From Octopus vulgaris (lineage: Eukaryota): a stretch of 64,000 bases of DNA. The notes under the pieces are model-generated. The model worked only from the letters and a program-made list of their open reading frames with translations. It was not told the DNA's origin and ran no database searches. Below are positions 7,962-52,060 of this stretch, one piece after another. A program made the position numbers and the translations under genes. The DNA is taken from contig OX597834.1 of the NCBI GenBank assembly GCA_951406725.2, positions 2,046,001 through 2,110,000 on the forward strand, written 5' to 3'. Each line of letters begins with the position of its first letter. Position 1 is the first letter of the stretch.

Positions 7962-8770
7962 GGGTGTGGTGAATAAACTGTCACTAAATTATGTAAAAAT
8001 GAAAATAACACTGACATCTCATTTTAACAGATATATTTACCAAAATTACATAAAAATATCTTGAAATGCTAAAGAATAAATTTATTCAATGAAATTGCCA
8101 TTGGCTTCAACCACAACCTCCAGATGACTTCGGAATCTCGTGCAACTCTTCTGGATGGTCTCCTTGTTTGTTTAAGTTGTTGAATGTTGCCATAATCCTT
8201 GCCTTCATTTCATCTTTGGTGTTAAAAAGGAGTCTTGTTGGTTTCACGCTCAACTGCACCCCACACATAATAATCAAGGGAGTTGCAGTCTGGGGAGTTA
8301 GGGATGATGTGGTTGCAGAAATTGTGTGAAAGCCATGACTGGGTTCTCCTGCTTGTGTGGCATGGTGCAGAGTCTTGTTGCCAGACATAGGGTCTTCTAG
8401 CAGCCAGCCTAGGGCAGCACCACCTCTTCCAGGCACTTGGCGTAGGTCTCTGTGTTGAGTCTGAGGCCATGTGGGAAGATGAATGTAGGCATAATGTTGC
8501 CATCACTGGTGATCACTTCAAACACCATGATGTTGACTGGATGTTTGATTTTTATCACTCTCAGTACATGTCCTCAGACTGGCACCCAAACACTCTCAAA
8601 TGTTTGTATTGAAGCTTCTGGCACAAATGCCAAGCAATACAGCATGTTGCTTACAAGTTTCTGGCAGAGTGAATTGTGTTATGATGCTGTTTTTTCACTG
8701 ACGGTGCCCTACTGACCCTACTATACTGTGTAGTCAACAAAATGAAAAACAAACAATACACATGCACAAT
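7960..8770 (-). mobile_element. Tc1/mariner DNA transposon remnant
   Basis: Reverse strand: RRPYVWQQDSAPCH...PNSPDCNSLDYYVWGAVERETNK (SPDxNPxD catalytic motif), frameshifted; CAGGGTG terminus next to a TA/CA repeat. Confidence 0.85.
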
Positions 8771-8779
8771 ATATATATA

Positions 8780-9554
8780 TGGATATGTAATGTCAGTGTT
8801 CATACTCGACAGAGTGTAAGTACCTTGAGAGAAAAGTTTGACCTAAGAAGCATCAGTTGTGGTGTGCAAGAGAGACGTTTGCGCTGGTATGGTCATGTGG
8901 CGAGAATGGATGAAGATAGTTGTGAGAAAAAGTGCCACACCCTAATGGTTGAGGGAACCTGTGGAAGAGGCAGACCCAGGAAAACCTGGGACGAGGTGGT
9001 GAAGCACGACCTTCGAACTTTAGGTCTCACCGAGGAAATGACAAGAGACCGAGACCTTTGGAAGTATGCTGTGCACGAGAAGACCCGGCAGGACAAGTCA
9101 GGCCATAACCCATGGCCTCTATCTGGGATGTAGCCAGTCCACTTATGCATTCCTTTCCTTCTTGGGACACAAAACTCTACTCATGAAGACCTGTTGAGGC
9201 AAGTGAAAATCGAAATCGTAATCAATCAACATCAATGGAAATTGCAGCTGTGATACCAGTGTCGGTGGCACGTAAGAGAACCATCTGAACGTGGCCGTTG
9301 CCAGCTCCGCCCCGACTGGCCTCCATGCCGGTGGCACGTAAAAAGCACCATCCGATTGTGGCTGTTTGCCAGCCTCATAAAAAGCACCCACTACACTCTT
9401 GGAGTGGTTGGCGTTAGGAAGGGCATCCAGCTGTAGAAACACTGCCAGATCAGACTAGAGCCTGGTGCAACCTCCTGGCTTCCCAGACCCCAGTTGAACC
9501 ATCCAACCCATGCTAGCATGGAAAACGGACGTTAAACGATGATGATGATGATGA
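8780..9554 (+). mobile_element. RTE-clade LINE 3' end, 5'-truncated, inserted in (AT)n
   Basis: RRLRWYGHVARMDEDSCEKKCHTLMVEGTCGRGRPRKTWDEVVKHDL is a typical RTE ORF C-terminus; 3'UTR; (GAT)n tail. Confidence 0.92.
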
Positions 9555-17461: not shown

Positions 17462-17647
17462 CTAATACTTGTTTTTGATGGGCCATCTGTGGTCCGCATT
17501 GCGTCGCCTCAATCTCAGCACGTCACCATCGACGTGAATAGCTTGGGCCTTGCTACGGAGGTCGTTGTGGATGTTCATTTTAGCCAGGTTCAGTAAATCG
17601 ATGTTCCTGCTGTTGTCAACAAGGGCATCCAGGAGGATGTTGCTGGC
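17462..17647 (-). CDS. CCDC105: CCDC105/TEKTL1 terminal coding exon
   Basis: ttgccag acceptor; ASNILLDALVDNSRNIDLLNLAKMNIHNDLRSKAQAIHVDGDVLRLRRRNADHRWPIKNKY*; tektin C-terminal DxxxKxxxxxVD..LRxR signature. Confidence 0.87.
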   Translation of the reverse strand, partial: ASNILLDALVDNSRNIDLLNLAKMNIHNDLRSKAQAIHVDGDVLRLRRRNADHRWPIKNKY

Positions 17648-20270: not shown

Positions 20271-20739
20271 GTGAACATACGAGAGTTCTGTTTACTCTGG
20301 GATATGAGGCTACACTTTCACATATTAACTTCTCTAGGAAATGTTTGTTTCTCAGCAGTTTGGCAGAGAGCAAGGCTGAGAGAAGTTAGTTGTTGATCAA
20401 CTGGTCAAGGGTTCAAATCAACAGCCAGGTGTTTGTTGCTTTTCTTTTTTTTTTTCTTATGAACTGTGAAGTGTTTCTGGAAAAACGGAACTGGAACATC
20501 TGGGATGTGTTAACAGCCTAACATATCTTCCTTCTTCACCTTGCCCTACCCAGGACAACAAGGAACAACTTGCTAGAAATAGCAGTCTTTTCCCAAATTA
20601 TGTACAAGTACAAATTAGACAATGTAATGGTTGCTATAAAAAAAAGACAGGATGGTCACAACTGGAACATTACGTCTACTGGACCATTGAGTGATGCAGT
20701 GCTGAGATAGAAAGAGGTGGGTTGGTCCCGTCTACTTAC

Positions 20740-20844
20740 ATCTCGAATGTCTTTGGCTCCGGACAAGTCTTGTCCACCATGGCGTTTGTACACCTCCACC
20801 ATTGGTCTGTTGATGCGTTCTCGACAGGTGAGATAGGCCGTACG
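20740..20844 (-). CDS. CCDC105: CCDC105/TEKTL1 coding exon 5 (35 codons)
   Basis: ctcttgcag/gtaag boundaries; RTAYLTCRERINRPMVEVYKRHGGQDLSGAKDIRD, similar to CCDC105 'EKLDRPLVRMYQRHVG'. Confidence 0.85.
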
Positions 20845-21180
20845 CTGCAAGAGAGGAGGAGTTACAGTAGAGTATAGAGAGAGAGGAGGAGGTACAGTTG
20901 CTGAACGTGACTGGAGAACATCTCCAGAGGATGCAGAGAGGTTTGTACGGGGCTGCCAGCAATGGAAAGCACTGGTGGCCCTGGTTGGCTCTACACAAGA
21001 CAACACTTATGGGACCCGGGATGAGCTCGAAGCAAGAAGAGGCAGAACGGTTGATTATAGAGAAAGAAATCTAGTAGGAACAGAGAGTGGAGAGATGTAC
21101 ATCGAATGTGCTTTGTGATACAACCACACCGCTACCATGCTACCACCAATACTATAGTAGAGAGAAATACCATTAAATTA

Positions 21181-22905
21181 GCAAATAGCTAACTATAGAT
21201 TACCCCACTAAGCACCCTAACAATAGACTCCCTGTACTTGATACTGAACTTTGGTTAGAGACTGTGAACAATAGAGTGCATCTCCTCCACTCTTATTACA
21301 TGAAACCTGTAACTTCAAAATATGTTGTTCACAAGAACCCAGCTTTGTCACACAACATGAAAATTAACATACAAATAGCAGACCTTGTTAGAATAATGTG
21401 TCCCCACTATGCGAACCCTGTGAAATGAAGAAACATATACAGAACTTCATGCACCGCATGCAGTTCTCTGGATATGATCAGAAAGATAGGGTTCATGCAT
21501 ACAGGGAGGTTAGAAAGAAATTAGATAACATTATATGTAATGATACCAGTGGTACCTGCCCTAGATATAGAAACAAAGAATGGAATAGAATACAAAGAGC
21601 TTGTGACAAAGCGAACACATGGTATAAAACCAACCAATATCAAGGAGTGATGTTTGTAGAGGCCACAGCCCATGGAGAACTAGCCCGTAGATTTAGAAAA
21701 GCTCTGAAGGAGACCAAACTCTACATTAAAATTGTTGAAAAGCCAGGGAACTCCGTCAGATCACAACTATGTAGGACGTACCCCGTTTAAGAATACCATA
21801 TGCACCAATGATAACTGCATGGTATGTAGGATTAACCCTGGTATTAACTGTAGAACTGGAAATGTAGTTTATAGTATAAGATGCATAGAAGGTGCTTGTA
21901 AGGACATGAACATGATGTACATAGGGGAGACGTGTAGGAGCATTGCGGAATGAATAAATGAACGTCTGAGACAATATGACGACAGAAAACAGTCCTCCAT
22001 ACTCTGCCAACATACCAAAGACCACCATGGAGGCAACTCGGGTCAACTTGACATCCGCATCTTATCCAAACACCCAAAAGACCCAACACTCAGACAAATA
22101 CGGGAGTAGTCCTTATAAATGAAACTTACCCAATATTAAGTAGGAAATATACACAGTAAATACCATACCTCCATACTCACAGTTTATACAGGTAGAGTAG
22201 AATAGTTAGTGGACTTTTTTATGTAGATAAATGTATGTATGTGGGGTGTGAGTGTGTGTGTATGCACTTTTTTTTTCTGTATGTAAGCATTTAGATATGT
22301 AAATAAACAGATCAATATACAGACGGATAGGTTTATAGGTTACAAGAACAGACACATATGGAGACACGGATCCACACATATAAAGATGCACATCCATACA
22401 CACAAACATGGTACATAGTTACATAACACACACACACACACACAGATATGCACACACAAGGAGACAGAGGTGCATACATATACAAACACATGCTCACACA
22501 CACATACATAGAACATACACAAACACGGACAGGCGAGCACATAAATATGCAGGATACGTACATACAGATGCACACATATATACATACATACACATGCAAA
22601 CACACATACATACATTCATGTATGCATGTATAGGCACACACACACACACACACACTGACCCACTCACATGTGCAAAACAAACAAAAGGAACGCAGTGTAA
22701 ATAAGGGACAGAGTCAAGACTATTGAAAAGGTTGCAAGACGCAACGAAAATTTTAGGAAAATAAAAATAAGAAAAAAGTGGAAATTTTACCGGTGAGTGT
22801 GTTAAATAATAAGGCACTTAAAGAGAATGACTCTCCCCAGACACAACAGAAAATGCTTCAACACACAAACTCATATAAAGAATCTTGCAAACCAAATCCA
22901 AAAAC
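21181..22905 (+). mobile_element. 5'-truncated Penelope-like retroelement (RT thumb plus GIY-YIG remnant plus terminal repeat) with 17-bp TSD
   Basis: Degraded ORF: LTIDYPTKHPNNRLPVLDTELW, YYMKPVTSK, NVVYSIRC...YIGETCRSIAE (GIY-YIG), with stops and frameshifts; flanked by GAAATACCATTAAATTA at 21164-21180 and 22906-22922. Confidence 0.85.
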
Positions 22906-22912
22906 GAAATAC

Positions 22913-23008
22913 CATTAAATTATTCTTTGACAATTCGGTTTTGTCTGACAAAATGTTGGCCATTTGTAGTGACTTCCTGTTTTCACCATTATGTATGGAC
23001 AGTTGTTG
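22913..23008 (-). CDS. CCDC105: CCDC105/TEKTL1 coding exon 4 (32 codons; absent from the ORF track)
   Basis: ctctctttcag acceptor and gtattt donor, phase 0/0; QQLSIHNGENRKSLQMANILSDKTELSKNNLM fills the expected gap. Confidence 0.78.
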
Positions 23009-23449
23009 CTGAAAGAGAGAGTCAGAGAGGGCAACAGTTAATGCAAGTGGGGTAACAAAACTGGGTGAATATATTGGCAGTCGTTGGTGAAATACAGATG
23101 TGGGTTAACATTAATAATGGGCTAACAGAAAAGCAAGTGAAATGTTAGGGTAAACAGTTAATACCAGGGTATACATAAAATAATAGGATGGTAGATTAAA
23201 ATTTAATACTGGATTAGATATACGGACAGTCGTGCATGAGACGGGCTAACATTTAAGACCAGGTGGGATGCTTAGGGACATGAATATTATTTTGAATGAT
23301 ATCATTAACCACCAGGGCCCCACTTTTCTTTTTTTTCAAGGTCTCTAAAAGTGTTGTTAAATGGAAGAAGATTAGAGACCTGTTGATGTCAATGATGATG
23401 ATGATGATGATGACACAAAACCAATCCAACAAAAACTCTGCCAACTCAC

Positions 23450-23812
23450 CAATAAATTATTTGTTTCGTTCAGTTTTTTACTCAACCCTTTATTCACTGA
23501 CAGATGAGCAGCATCTTTCAGGCTCCTCATCTTCTTAATTGCGTTCTCAGCTTCCTCACGGTTCTTACAAGACATCTTCATTGCATCCCTTGCCTCTCGC
23601 AATGAAATCTCAACTTCAGGAGTCTTTACCTCAGCCAATTCAATTGGATTCGGCAGGATTGCCCCCAGTTTAGCATTTGCTGTCTGGGGCCGTGGCTTCT
23701 CCTGCCACAATTTCTGAAAATGGATGCTGGCCACAGATTCATTGGTCAACTCCATGACACGACCTCGCTCCTTTAGGGTAGCTTTTAGATTTTTTCGAGC
23801 ATTTTGAAGAAC
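23450..23812 (-). CDS. CCDC105: CCDC105/TEKTL1 coding exon 3 (121 codons)
   Basis: tttcag/gtgag boundaries; VLQNARKNLKATLKERGRVMEL...AAHLSVNKGLSKKLNETNNLL, coiled-coil heptads. Confidence 0.87.
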
Positions 23813-24609
23813 CTGAAATATAAGGATAGATGGAGAAATATGAGGGGTAGATGGAAGAATATAAAGAAAAGTACAAGAGGGAGAAATATGAGGCTGAACA
23901 GAGATTGGCAAAATGAAGTTCTTGACTTTGCATTGTCACGTTTCTATTTATTTCAATTAATTTTAATAATAATAAAGAATTTAGTAAAATAATTTTGTTT
24001 TTATTAAACAGGTGTTTGGAACATAAATTAACATAAAATTTTGATGGAAGGTTTTTAATTCAAATCACTTTAAAACATGAAGTTTGTATCATAGATTCAA
24101 GGGTGATGGTCTCGGGTGGATTAGAAAGAAAAGGATTTAGAGACAAAGGTGGGTAGAATATCACCATAATACACAAGAAAAAGAAAATGACACTGTTGGT
24201 TACGGCGATGATCAATGCTATTGATCCGATCAAAAGAACAACCTGCTCACGAAATTAACAAGTGGCTGAGTACTCCACAGACATATGTACTCCTTAAAGT
24301 AGTTCTCAGGAAGATTCAGTGTGACTTTGAAATACAGGTGTAACTCCTTTTCACCAGCTGGAGCAATGTGGAATAGAGTGTCTTGCCCAAGGACACCACA
24401 TGCCTCTTGGAATTGAACCCACGACCTTACAATCATGAGCCAGATATTCTGATGACTAAGCCACATATCGGCACTAAAAAAAAAAAAAAGGATGAGACAC
24501 TAGAATACCACTGCAACACAATCACTACGCTACCACTGAACTATGACACAACCACTGCAACCACTTGAATTAAATTAACACAAAAAGGGGGAATAAAATT
24601 GCAAATTAC

Positions 24610-24714
24610 TTGGAGACCATCTTGGACAATGTGTAGTTGGACTTCCAGAACTTTCTTGGAATTTACCAAATGTTTCATCTCAGCACAAAGTAAATCATCA
24701 GCTCCATCTCTGTC
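24610..24714 (-). CDS. CCDC105: CCDC105/TEKTL1 coding exon 2 (35 codons)
   Basis: ttgcag/gtaatt boundaries, phase 0/0; DRDGADDLLCAEMKHLVNSKKVLEVQLHIVQDGLQ. Confidence 0.85.
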
Positions 24715-37418: not shown

Positions 37419-38455
37419 AGTGTGTTAATAATTTTTTTAGCTTCAATGTTCTGAGTTCAAATTCTGCTGAAGTTGACTTTGTCTTTCATCCCTTTTGGGG
37501 CCAGTAAAATAAGTACCAGCCATGCACTGAGGTTGACGTAATTGACTAACCCATCTCCCCTGAAATTGCTGGCCTTGTGCCAGAATTTGAAACCAACATT
37601 TTTACTTTCAATTCGTCATCATAAACTGAAAGGATGTTACGAATATAATCACACCAGCAGCCGACAGTCTATGTGGTCATTCAACCTGTTAGAAATGGCA
37701 GCTAAGTCTCCCTCAAATCATACTGTACCATCTTACAAAATAGAGGGACACACTGATGTGATCCTACAAATACTGTGAAATTAAGATGAGATGATCATAG
37801 TTAGAACGTCTGCTGAATCATGGTCAGCCTAGGGCTAAACAATGGCAACATCTTCATCTTGAGACACCAAAAGAGCCTCTATGTGGTCAGTTGAGCTGCT
37901 AGAAATAACAGCTAAATCTTTTTTCAAATAATCCCCATTATCAACAGGATAGCCACAGTGTGTGCCATCTGAGGCAGCCTGTGACTTTTCTGCATCCTCC
38001 CCCCCCCACCTCTTATACAGTCTTATATTGCAGACTCCAAAGGTGCCACCCTCATAAAAACCGAAAGTGCCCCACCCCCACCCCCGCTTTGGACATTGTA
38101 GTCTTGAGTTCGCTGGGTATTGGAAAAAGATGGGGTAGCCACAGCTGGAATGTCTTTGATCGCAGGTGTGATTAATCTAAAGGCTGACCTGGGGTTAAAT
38201 AACAACAGCAAATATGAAGCAGCAAAGAGCACATTAGATAATGTAGTCTAAGATACACTATACCTGAATAAAAGATGGAATGGTGATGGTCCGTCACACC
38301 AGGAAAGAACGCATTACATAACGTAGCCCTAGATACACTATGTGTGACTAAACGACGGGATGGTCATGGTTGTATTAAGTCCACTAGATTGGGCGTGACC
38401 CAGGGATAAACATAGCACGCCTTCCTTTAAAAATTTTAAAAAAGCGATGTCTCAC

Positions 38456-38848
38456 CAATTCCCGTTCCGGTCGGAATCTCCTGGTCGCCTGGCTCTCCCT
38501 GTTCGTCACGATGTCCTTCCTGATGTAGTCCAGTTCTTTCTCCAGCCTCTCCTTACACCTGGTGCCCGACACAATTTCATAATTCACCTTCACCAACGCC
38601 CGTCTTAATTTCACCGTCACCTCCCTCATTAATCGACAATATTTCAATATAGCATCATTAGCGTGTCGGACGAGGACATCTCTGAGGAAAGGCGACGGGT
38701 CTGTCGACTTTCTGGCAGCCACATATTTCTCAGTTCTCTGCATTATTCCCTGCGACACCTTCATTCCTCGCAAAGTCCTGCTACGCCATTCTTCTGTCCC
38801 AATCGTTAGTTCTGGCATTTTAGCCGAAACCCTTTCTGTTTTATCCAT
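38456..38848 (-). CDS. CCDC105: Tektin-like CCDC105/TEKTL1, coding exon 1 (131 codons)
   Basis: ATG at 38848; ...LEKELDYIRKDIVTNRESQATRRFRPEREL then gtgag donor; resembles CCDC105 '[26 protein letters not shown]' as recalled, with a tektin-like RPxxE motif. Confidence 0.85.
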
Positions 38849-48140: not shown

Positions 48141-48600
48141 GACAGAGACTGGTGGAAGCAGCAGCAGTAGCTAGCAGTAGTAGTCAGATATATACACACA
48201 TATATACACCTCCTCTCTCTTTTTATTTAACTGAACCACCACCACATTGTCGGACTATATATATATATATACACTCACTCTCTCTCAGCCACGGAGACCC
48301 TATTTACTCGGACTTTTATTTATTTCCTCGTTCTTATGAAATTTCCTTCCCTCCTTATCTCGTTTTTCTTCACATCCGACAGTCGAGTGGACGTGTGTGT
48401 TTAATTCATTCTTGCTGTATGTATGCATGTGTGTGTGTGTGATAGTGTGTGAGTGAGTGTGTGAATGTGTGTGCGAGTATGGATGTATGTGTGTGTGAGT
48501 GAGTAATTGGTTCCGGAAAGGAAGAACTGGAATTTTGTGTGTTTTGTTCTGTCTTGAGAAAGGAAAAAAAAAATTAATAATAAAGGGGGAGGGGAAAAAG

Positions 48601-50640
48601 ATGGATGCTATACCCGAATTTCCGAAACTCGTTGTGGAGAAGAAACGTGCGTACGAGGCGGAGGAAAGGGAGCAACAATCTCCCTCCTGTGGTAGAGACA
48701 TTAGTATTGGTGATGGTGTCGTTGGTGTTGATATGAAGTCATCTTCTTCCTCCACTTGTCAGTATTCAACATGGAAACAGAAGCGAAAGCTAAACCACAA
48801 TGACACAAATAGTGGCGGGGCTCAGGTGAAATCCCCAAACTCAAAGTATAGCCCTCATAGCAACGACGGTTCTCTACCATCTCCGGGGATGACTAGTCCG
48901 ATTTCGTTTGCGACCACCACAACGAATTCTGATGGCAGCCGTGATGCGGGAGAGAAGCTGGTCGATGATGATCGCATCATACCAGTCCATGATAATCCGT
49001 TTTTTGTCAAAGACGGCAGGAGAAGTCTGGACAGAAGAGATATGAACGGCTCCTTGGATTACCACAATGACGAAACCATCAACAACCGCCAGGACTTATC
49101 AAATTTCCGAGACGACACGGATATGGAGTACCATCCTGGATCCGGATTTGTTAGCCGTTTAAAGGATAAATTTTCATCATTAGGTGCCAGAGAAGATGTA
49201 ACTGTGTTGCGCCCGAAAAGATCTTCCAGTTTTGAAAATCTGTTGGATGGTAGACCGAAATCACATAATGGTGGGGACTTAGGTCTGACGGACACAAGGC
49301 GGAAATTCCGAGACGGCCGCGCTGTGAGCGTTGAAAATTTGAACCACACCATGGATAAAAGCTCTACTTCTCCAAACCTGGTGCTCGATTTGAAATTAGC
49401 GAAACAAGGAAGTAGCGACAGTGGCAGTGACATTAGGAACACAAACAAAGACCGGGAAACTGTGGTGCCAGAGAAAAGCCCAACAATTCATCCGGTTTCT
49501 CCGTCTCCAAGTTTTGATGCTAAACCCCACATTAGTGTCATATCCGCTGCAGCCAATGATGAAAACAAAAACGTAGATGAATTGCCGAAACCCAATACAG
49601 TTTCGTCGTTTCGAAGTTTATTTGAGAATTCTGCTATGAAACCCAAGGGTAAGACCACACCGGCCCCTGTGAAACCTGTAAATTCTACTACACCTGAAAC
49701 ATTAATATCACCAAATAAAAAAGAAAGTAAAGCTACCCTTGTTGCAACTAAACCTGCACCACCACCACCTCCGAAAGAAAGGAACCACGAAGCATCTGTT
49801 AAAAAACCTGAAGTTGCAAAACGTACGGTGTTGGAACAGAAGAATTCCGGAATTGCTGAAAATAACTCAAGTTCTTTAGAAAAGGACAGTTCCAGTGTTA
49901 AGACAACTGCTAAGCAGGCAACACCAAGTTTACCCCTAACATCACACATTTCATCTTCACCCACTTTAGAGACATCCTCTTCGTCGCAGATTAATCAAGT
50001 ATCGGACTCCAAGAGAGTGGCACCAGTTGTTCCTGCTGAAAATGACCACCACTCGGTGTCTGAAAGTAAAGAAAACACAAGACCGTCTAGTGATACAAAT
50101 GCTGAATTTCATAACCGCGGGCTCCCTTCGATTCTTATGAGAAAAAACACCGATGATTCCGGAGAACTTGGCCAGGTGGTCCTGCGGAAGGTGAAACCTA
50201 GGATCTTGGAAGATGATGACGAACTTAAAGGTAGAATTACTTATTATCCAGCTGGTCTTAACAAAACGACAAATTCTTCGTCTTCCGAAGAACCGACACC
50301 AAAGATGAGGCATCCACCTCTTGTGACAGGCATCAGCGGTATTGGTAACACTGATCTGTGGGGTGAAGAGGACGATGAAGATATTTTCTATGCAGACGGT
50401 GAGGTGATTGAGAAAGATGTGGAAGATAACCGACACATCATTATCACAGACTCTATGTTGAAGAAAAATCCCAATGCGGGTACTTTGACACACTTGGATT
50501 TATCACATCTTACCAATGACGGCGGCCAGGAACACCAGGAAGGCTATATTCCTTCCAAAATTGGGCCTTGTAAGATACAATTCATTGGAGCAAATGTCAA
50601 ACTTGACAGAAGCTGTATAATAAAGAATAAAACATCAAAG
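48601..50640 (+). CDS. Taperin/phostensin (TPRN/PPP1R18)-like PP1- and actin-associated protein, large first coding exon (680 codons); continues after a phase-0 intron
   Basis: Long non-repetitive ORF ending at AAG|gtgagt. N-terminal MDAIPEFPKLVVEKKR resembles the phostensin/taperin IPxWK..LL..KR start; YHPGSGFVSRLKDKF motif; C-terminal IQFIGANVKLDRSCIIKNKTSK resembles taperin IEVIGGYL.L.KSCL.K just before the KISF PP1 motif; S/P/K-rich disordered middle. Confidence 0.75.
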
Positions 50641-52060
50641 GTGAGTGAGTGATTTCAGGGGCCTTGCCCTTTCTTCTTCTATGTACGCTTCTGTGAGTAT
50701 GTGTATAATATATATTTGGGGAAATATATGCATTTGTATGTATTTATAAATATATCTGTATATATGTGTGTATGTTGATGTATGTATATCTTTCTTCTTG
50801 TGTGTGTATATGTATTATGTTCTAGTTTTCATTCTGAAGATCAATTTGATATTTATTTAATAGAGTCACTGTATATCTGTATATATTTTATTGACAATTT
50901 TATCTGTGAATGTAAGACACTGAACATAGTAAATTGCCGGATTAAGCATATTTTCCTATTGACTTACGCCCCCTTTCTTCCAGATTAACCCTCCTCCTTC
51001 AATATTTCCAATAACTATTGTTTAAATACCAGTGATTAAGGCGGCCCCTTGTCATTTATTCCTACCAGTGTTCGGTTTAACTGTTTAATCTTACGTCAGC
51101 TCAGCCCTGGTCCGGTAGGCTATCTACGAAGAAAAACGATTATATTAACCAGACTTCTTTATTTAAGACAGTCCGGTGTAATATTGTCTGTTATTATTAG
51201 CAGGTGGAATGACCACGTCGTAGCTCTGTCTCTCTCTCTCCGGTGCGGGATGTGACTGATGTGTGGACAGCGGTATCACAGTTTCAATTAAGTTGTTAAG
51301 GATGTCTGGAATGGCATGAAGGTCACCGACCCATCCCATTAGACAAAAAGGATAGTGTTGGGACAAACAGAAAATAGTCTCACTTCCTGTTCGCTCCTCT
51401 GATGGCCCTCCCTTCCTAAATCGCTGACCGATCAGCTATTTTGCTGACATTAACTGTGATAATAATCCTCATAATTAGGACCCAACTGATTATAATTGCC
51501 TATAATTAAATCTTATTCCGTCAATCACACACACTGCACCTCTGTTGAACCAGCCAGTGTAGACGTACAACCTGCTAAAAATAACAGTCAAGATTCCCTC
51601 TCAAGTCACGCCACACTATTGAAAAAAGGATGGACATAAGAGTCCAAGACATCTCCCTCTCCTCTAACACGTTCCGGAAAAGTCGGGATAGAATTCTTTT
51701 AATTATAAATCTGCTCGGTCCAGGGACAATTAATAATTGTGTTAATTCTAAAGCAGAAACTCTCTTCCAAGTTAACAGATATCGAGTTCAAATTTAACTT
51801 TAGGTTGTATTCTACCCTTGGACAGCTACATTTTATAACTGCGGGTATGTAACCATTGTGTCTAGAACCAAGTCTACCTCACGGGTTTTAAGGGATCAGC
51901 AAGGACTACTTTATTTATTATGGTTTTCCTTAAATGTTTTTGAAAGGGTAGGCCGTGATTTTGAGAAAGGTTTGGATATTATTTCTAGCGGATCGACCGA
52001 CCGCGTGGAGGCTCTCCATACATGTATGTGTGTGTGTATATATAGTGTGTGTATGCATAC

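Follow-up and report, generated by a model that had tools for sequence, protein, structure and literature searches.

A 5'-truncated Penelope-like element probably inserted at the exon 4 splice donor of a CCDC105-like gene in Octopus vulgaris

Can a retroelement land on a splice donor without destroying the gene, because its target duplication leaves a copy of the donor in place, and does the surplus copy then seed a new intron or exon? A locus of Octopus vulgaris, on which the open-licence literature yielded nothing, raises this question; it lies in a window of 64,000 nucleotides (contig OX597834.1, positions 2,046,001 to 2,110,000, assembly GCA_951406725.2), which was analysed as a whole. An earlier note on this DNA had described a 17-mer, GAAATACCATTAAATTA, bracketing a block of about 1.7 kb within a CCDC105-like gene. 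The pair is indeed exact, its members are spaced 1742 nt apart and, with up to two mismatches allowed, they are the only matches in the window (Table 1), against a chance expectation of 0.02 matches (mean of shuffles) and with two matches in 0 of 100 shuffles. We consider it probable (roughly 85%) that the block is a broken, 5'-truncated Penelope-like element (PLE), lying antisense in intron 4 and likely inserted by target-primed reverse transcription at nicks flanking the splice junction, and that the exon-adjacent donor is the one that is used.

Table 1. Positions in the window of the host gene, the repeated 17-mer and the element (a slash in a sequence marks the splice junction).
Feature	Positions	Strand	Remarks
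CCDC105-like, first coding exon	38450..38848	-	3' limit approximate
CCDC105-like, exon 2	24598..24714	-	limits approximate, tblastn
CCDC105-like, exon 3	23450..23812	-	121 aa
CCDC105-like, exon 4	22913..23008	-	96 nt, 32 aa, phase 0/0
CCDC105-like, exon 5	20740..20844	-	35 aa, phase 0/0; covered by an RNA-like contig
CCDC105-like, last coding exon	17465..17647	-	61 aa
Remainder of the inferred pre-insertion intron 4	20845..21170	-	326 nt; acceptor with 16/20 pyrimidines; second donor at 21170
Left 17-mer	21164..21180	+	on the gene strand TAATTTAATG/GTATTTC, second donor copy, use not seen
Right 17-mer	22906..22922	+	22906-22911 common to the element end; G of the working donor at 22912
Last 10 nt of exon 4, within the right 17-mer	22913..22922
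5'-truncated Penelope-like retroelement	21180..22911	+	antisense to the gene, in intron 4
Broken ORF remnant	21180..22160	+	RT C-terminal part, CX4CX2C linker, GIY-YIG with CCHH
AC-rich 3' region	22200..22660	+	present in other family copies
Pseudo-LTR plus ~60-nt tail	22600..22911	+	5' limit not fixed; predicted ORF start codon at 22827

Exon 3 of the host gene matches the database protein P0001 at 100%. This protein of 415 aa is named CCDC105-like, has a Tektin Pfam domain and presumably plays a role in sperm microtubule doublets. Mapping in the window (five exons by tblastn, exon 5 separately) gave six coding exons, all on the minus strand, and the number four given previously to the exon at the insertion is therefore correct. 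P0001 and the second database entry, P0006, differ in 1 of 415 residues and both read KNNLM/RTAYL at the junction of exons 4 and 5, across which the alignment of the closest homologue (59%) is free of gaps. The evidence supports a CCDC105-like protein of 415 aa that is intact despite the insertion. Intron 4 now measures 2068 nt. Once the element and a single copy of the 17-mer are subtracted, a complete GT-AG intron of 326 nt remains at the same position, so that the proposed growth from about 326 bp to about 2.07 kb is reproduced by computation. In the pre-insertion state the intron would thus have been 326 nt long, and it would have begun with GTATTTCTCTC. Elsewhere in the window, a stop-free frame of 717 codons and low complexity (48499-50649, plus strand) is probably a large exon of another gene. 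We take a fragment at 8110-8512 (minus strand) to resemble a Tc1/mariner transposase and one at 8702-9130 (plus strand) to resemble the 3' end of an RTE-type LINE, both from their motifs.

It could be argued that the two 17-mers match by chance, that they reflect an assembly artefact or that they mark the edges of several unrelated insertions. The left junction is, however, bridged gap-free by 39, 39 and 63 nt in contigs of all three independent DNA-type runs examined (organisms B, C and D, from three studies). These contigs differ from the window in 4 of 620, 4 of 620 and 3 of 445 letters, respectively, and bridge the junction together with a 26-bp deletion that is private to the window copy; B, C and D therefore carry the same insertion. 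For the left junction, which is the one examined, the insertion is thus common to close relatives. No empty site was encountered among the listed loose ends of the DNA-type runs from these three organisms, which would fit this reading, but the chance expectation of 0.02, the continuity of the block as one family element from end to end and the regularity with which this family makes such repeats all speak against it, and we hold it to be highly improbable. In all three DNA-type runs contig depth is very high at 20631-20692 and at about 20941-21002; these short stretches represent small dispersed repeats, the first in intron 5 and the second in intron 4.

The earlier note had seen in the block an RT/GIY-YIG remnant, an AC-rich spacer and a terminal repeat. 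A search of the octopus's own genome with 21181-22200 gave 41 matches, from the best 40 of 2352 candidates scored, at 85-97% when the window is excluded; a second family sample comprised the best 40 of 1025 candidates scored (best BLAST hits). Five copies of this high-copy family (L009, L013, L022, L028 and L030) align continuously over approximately 21187-22911, the AC-rich part included, and the block is therefore one element. Its ends coincide with the family 3' end and with a 5' truncation point, and the family sequence extends 5' beyond the start of the window copy. In the coding part the window copy is 96.5% identical to its closest relative in the family, L002, and 89-93% to the other copies. 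Since what it has in common with L002 is confined to element sequence, a segmental duplication of the host locus was dismissed.

The ORF remnant is broken by two frameshifts and by a TGA in frame, which was not taken as selenocysteine because family copy L037 has Arg there. The YVDD motif of the RT lies upstream of the truncation, so that the remnant comprises only the C-terminal part of the RT, the linker and the GIY-YIG domain. The linker reads CTNDNCMVC (CX4CX2C) in the window copy and in L037, and the GIY-YIG core motifs are present, with two Cys between them and two His downstream (CCHH, read by eye). PLEs of the Neptune/Nematis type have a CX2-5CxxC linker between RT and EN, according to PMC8557442. 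The endonuclease of the octopus element is C-terminal and not, as in Naiad/Chlamys, N-terminal. Under the definitions in PMC8557442, the element is a canonical C-terminal-endonuclease PLE of the Neptune/Nematis type and not a Naiad. Upstream of the RT, the family ORF carries in L032, L042 and L044 an Asn-rich low-complexity insert of variable length, which resembles the N-rich inserts noted for rotifer Penelope elements (PMC3846280).

The terminal repeat is a pseudo-LTR (pLTR): among the 20 loci that were taken at the family's 5' part, seven (L084, L086, L087, L092, L093, L095 and L097) have the 3' end sequence directly upstream of the ORF. Family copies end at one of two positions, about 22850 or 22911, and inverted 5' copies are also present. 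The ORF is predicted to begin within the pLTR and tail, where 22827-22911 would hold its first 28 codons; in the long copies these are in frame with the ORF that follows downstream. Many copies of about 200-400 bp (L050-L078 and L041) consist of the pLTR and an inverted pLTR fragment flanked by repeats of about 12 bp; these short copies resemble MITEs although they are retroelement-made. No hammerhead ribozyme family occurred among the 15 Rfam matches at E<=5, which were only sub-threshold, miRNA-like matches on the AC-rich part; near 22730 a 5-bp hairpin precedes GAAA, but the core there is non-canonical for a hammerhead.

The octopus family shares with Neptune/Nematis PLEs (PMC8557442) the order of RT and C-terminal GIY-YIG, the Zn-finger-like linker, the CCHH residues, 5' truncation, pLTRs, inverted 5' copies, an optional tail and a bias towards (TA)n targets, whereas it differs in its tail (about 60 nt instead of 30-40 nt) and in that no canonical hammerhead was found in the octopus element. 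The (TA)n bias fits Neptune, but Naiads have it too (PMC8557442). The layout of a pLTR plus tail equals that given in PMC3846280 and PMC11167929. Penelope elements of Adineta vaga likewise have the start of the ORF inside the pLTR plus tail, and they have undergone microhomology-mediated internal deletions, comparable to the loss of 26 bp between two TAACT words in the octopus copy; their target duplications are 8-10 bp, whereas the repeats of the octopus family reach greater lengths (10-15 bp, with a mode of 12) and in many cases extend into the 3' end of the element (PMC3846280). The private deletion of the window copy lies near the 5' end of the element; the deleted form was found at the window's own locus only, while the undeleted form was present in 18 of the 29 family loci examined.

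How much of the 17-mer is a target duplication depends on where the element ends. On the 5' side, the family copies have CATCC upstream of AGCAAATAGC, where CATCC is followed by AGCAAATAGCTAACT; since the copies read CATCC there, the window copy begins at 21180, and this A is the one base that it has in common with the left 17-mer. The microhomology of aaatta in a KLANS frame that had been proposed for this junction is thus incorrect, the overlap amounting to 1 nt and the coding frame being QIAN. On the 3' side, the proposed microhomology GAAATA did hold: it is the element's own end and, because the long copies continue with T or A and the window with C, the overlap is exactly 6 nt. A longer 3' match through a CATCAA continuation, seen in two copies, was rejected, as the long copies continue with TAATAAG or AAATAAG. 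Since 6 nt and 1 nt at the two junctions belong equally to the element, the duplication measures between 10 and 17 bp. A target duplication straddling the exon 4 donor, as claimed earlier, is supported, but its length of 17 bp was overstated, only 10 bp being unambiguous. Read in the direction of the gene, exon 4 remains joined to no less than the G of its donor, so that the event equals an intronic insertion at +2 to +8.

For the preferred reading, the first nick would have been made in the gene's sense strand, between donor positions +1 and +7, and the nicked strand would have primed cDNA synthesis at the pLTR tail of the element, whose GAAATA matches the target over 6 nt, either through pairing or through a preference of the endonuclease. 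A second nick 9-10 nt inside exon 4, followed by fill-in, would have duplicated 10-17 bp. Exon 4 would have retained its unchanged donor, TAATTTAATG/GTATTTC, and the insertion may have survived because of this, the allele being tolerated and spreading.

The other copies of the family were inspected for the same pattern. The sample consists of the top-scoring BLAST hits, with 5' limits that are approximate, and the null model is without an AT-rich cut preference. The 3' end runs into (TA)n in 14 of 51 cases; these ends and one call of a simple repeat (L068) were left out of the repeat count. A non-simple flanking direct repeat of 10-15 bp is present at 15 of the 37 non-(TA)n ends, compared to 5 of 1332 controls with swapped flanks, and its length is most often 12 bp (exactly 12 in 8 of 15); L040 showed a 9-bp repeat in one pass and none in the other. 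Microhomology of at least 4 nt at the 3' junction occurs in 5 of the 15 copies vs 6.4% in simulations (binomial p ~0.002). The repeat of 17 bp and overlap of 6 nt in the window fall at the long end of this pattern, 17 bp exceeding the family maximum of 15.

These statistics bear on an alternative in which the donor was rescued by the element: the duplication would be only 10-12 bp, the nick would lie at +1/+2, and most of donor positions +2 to +7 (TATTTC) would derive from the element tail. Subtracting the 6-nt overlap from 17 leaves 11, close to the 12 bp around which the family repeats cluster; GAAATA occurs at 31 of the 51 family ends, more often than any other ending; and PLE priming in vitro can do without homology, since in a Poseidon-clade PLE reverse transcription begins on RNA that is non-homologous to the cut DNA (PMC11167929). 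This alternative does require, however, that 5-6 nt of the original intron coincided with the end of the element, whether accidentally or through target preference, and a 3' match of at least 6 nt was simulated at 0.65%. Moreover, long overlaps recur, as 2 of the 15 repeats (L052 and L064) begin 5 nt inside the element end, and repeat lengths are tighter when the overlap is counted (10-15) than when it is not (5-13). We therefore regard donor rescue as possible, although somewhat unlikely. The tight lengths with the overlap included lean towards the pairing model, whereas the homology-free priming of Poseidon in vitro disfavours pairing as the cause of the 6-nt match. Repeat length and 3' overlap are not correlated (rho 0.14, p 0.61), which does not separate the two priming models, and at this locus both give the same letters at positions +2 to +7, whether these came from the host or from the element. 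The Poseidon element PAc in vitro is like the octopus family in its two RT start sites, which define the tail, and in its AT-rich targets, but it starts on non-homologous RNA, whereas short 3' matches are found in a third of the measurable octopus copies (PMC11167929). Because the antisense tail reads TATTTC, insertion behind a G would give a usable GT donor. An extended version, in which the family pairs with or prefers tail-like targets, the working donor is partly element-derived and donors could be rescued or created elsewhere in the genome, is in our view unlikely.

Under the preferred reading, the donor next to exon 4 is the one in use, and this is what RNA-like data indicate. In run X9, whose RNA status is a guess, one contig of depth 10.6 covers 20739-20845, and its loose end extends beyond this by 96 letters that begin with ATTAAATTATTCTTTGACAATTCGG. 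The continuation ATTAAATTATTCTTTG corresponds to exon 4 from 22914, while the left copy would have continued with ATTAAATTAGCAAAT; the donor at 22912 is therefore used, and the junction of 22913 to 20844 that the earlier note had suggested looking for is seen in one RNA-like contig. The idea that the duplication rebuilt the donor and that the element is spliced out consequently stands as regards the intact protein and the donor used, though not as regards the full 17 bp. The second donor is likewise present where it had been placed, about 1.7 kb downstream, but its use has not been seen.

Use of this second donor, at 21170, would create a cryptic exon from the antisense element or a regulated alternative 5' splice site, with candidates such as a 247-nt poison exon from an AG near 21418 and an 18-nt in-frame microexon. 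Both donors have the same sequence from -10 to +7, one upstream AG is preceded by 14/20 pyrimidines, and the 18-nt candidate is open and in frame. However, of the 13 AG-defined candidate exons of at most about 400 nt for which the second donor would form the 3' limit, 12 contain an in-frame stop, and the open one has 9/20 pyrimidines vs 16-18 at the real acceptors. Read-through from exon 4 reaches a stop at codon 14, both donors are weak (5/9 to the U1 consensus), with 16 other intron GT sites scoring higher, and no joint to 21171 is listed in the one RNA-like run examined, whose contigs drop rare isoforms and cannot show absence. Use of the second donor is thus quite improbable, and the surplus copy, with no strong acceptor close upstream, is likely a silent decoy. 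Exon 4, which is in frame and 96 nt long, is also bracketed by a perfect 17-nt inverted repeat (21835-21851 in the element and 23154-23170 in intron 3). Such a length was reached in 0 of 1000 shuffles and 0 of 276 real 441-nt controls, and the element arm is one base off in 15 of 29 family loci and exact in none. Found after the fact, it may be due to chance; should its arms pair in the pre-mRNA, exon 4 could be skipped more readily.

The earlier suggestion that the insertion may seed a cryptic exon hence finds no backing in the stops of the candidate exons or in the joints listed for one RNA-like run, and the same holds for a new intron, since the old acceptor and 326 nt of the old intron persist. 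The locus resembles introners in that a splice signal lies within the target duplication and the element is removed by splicing, but it adds no intron position, the prior intron and its acceptor being already there, the insert is a retroelement without TIRs, and the duplicated signal is surplus (PMC11282704). Removal of the insert leaves the 326-nt GT-AG intron, so no new intron position has arisen. Intron gain or exonization is not shown by this locus, which is likely an insertion of an ordinary kind that the gene tolerates and neither a new intron nor a new exon. Donors number in the order of 2x10^5 in 2.8 Gb and, given approximately 2000 candidate copies, we estimate that chance alone would place one or two insertions across a donor.

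Within these bounds, the locus illustrates clearly how a splice junction can receive a retroelement and remain unharmed when the target is duplicated. The insertion also provides a presence/absence marker common to close relatives. What is mildly interesting is the microhomology at 3' junctions throughout the family. The reusable result is formed by the junction statistics of the family, with repeats near 12 bp and 3' matches that are short; these statistics are relevant to the priming of Penelope-like elements in vivo.
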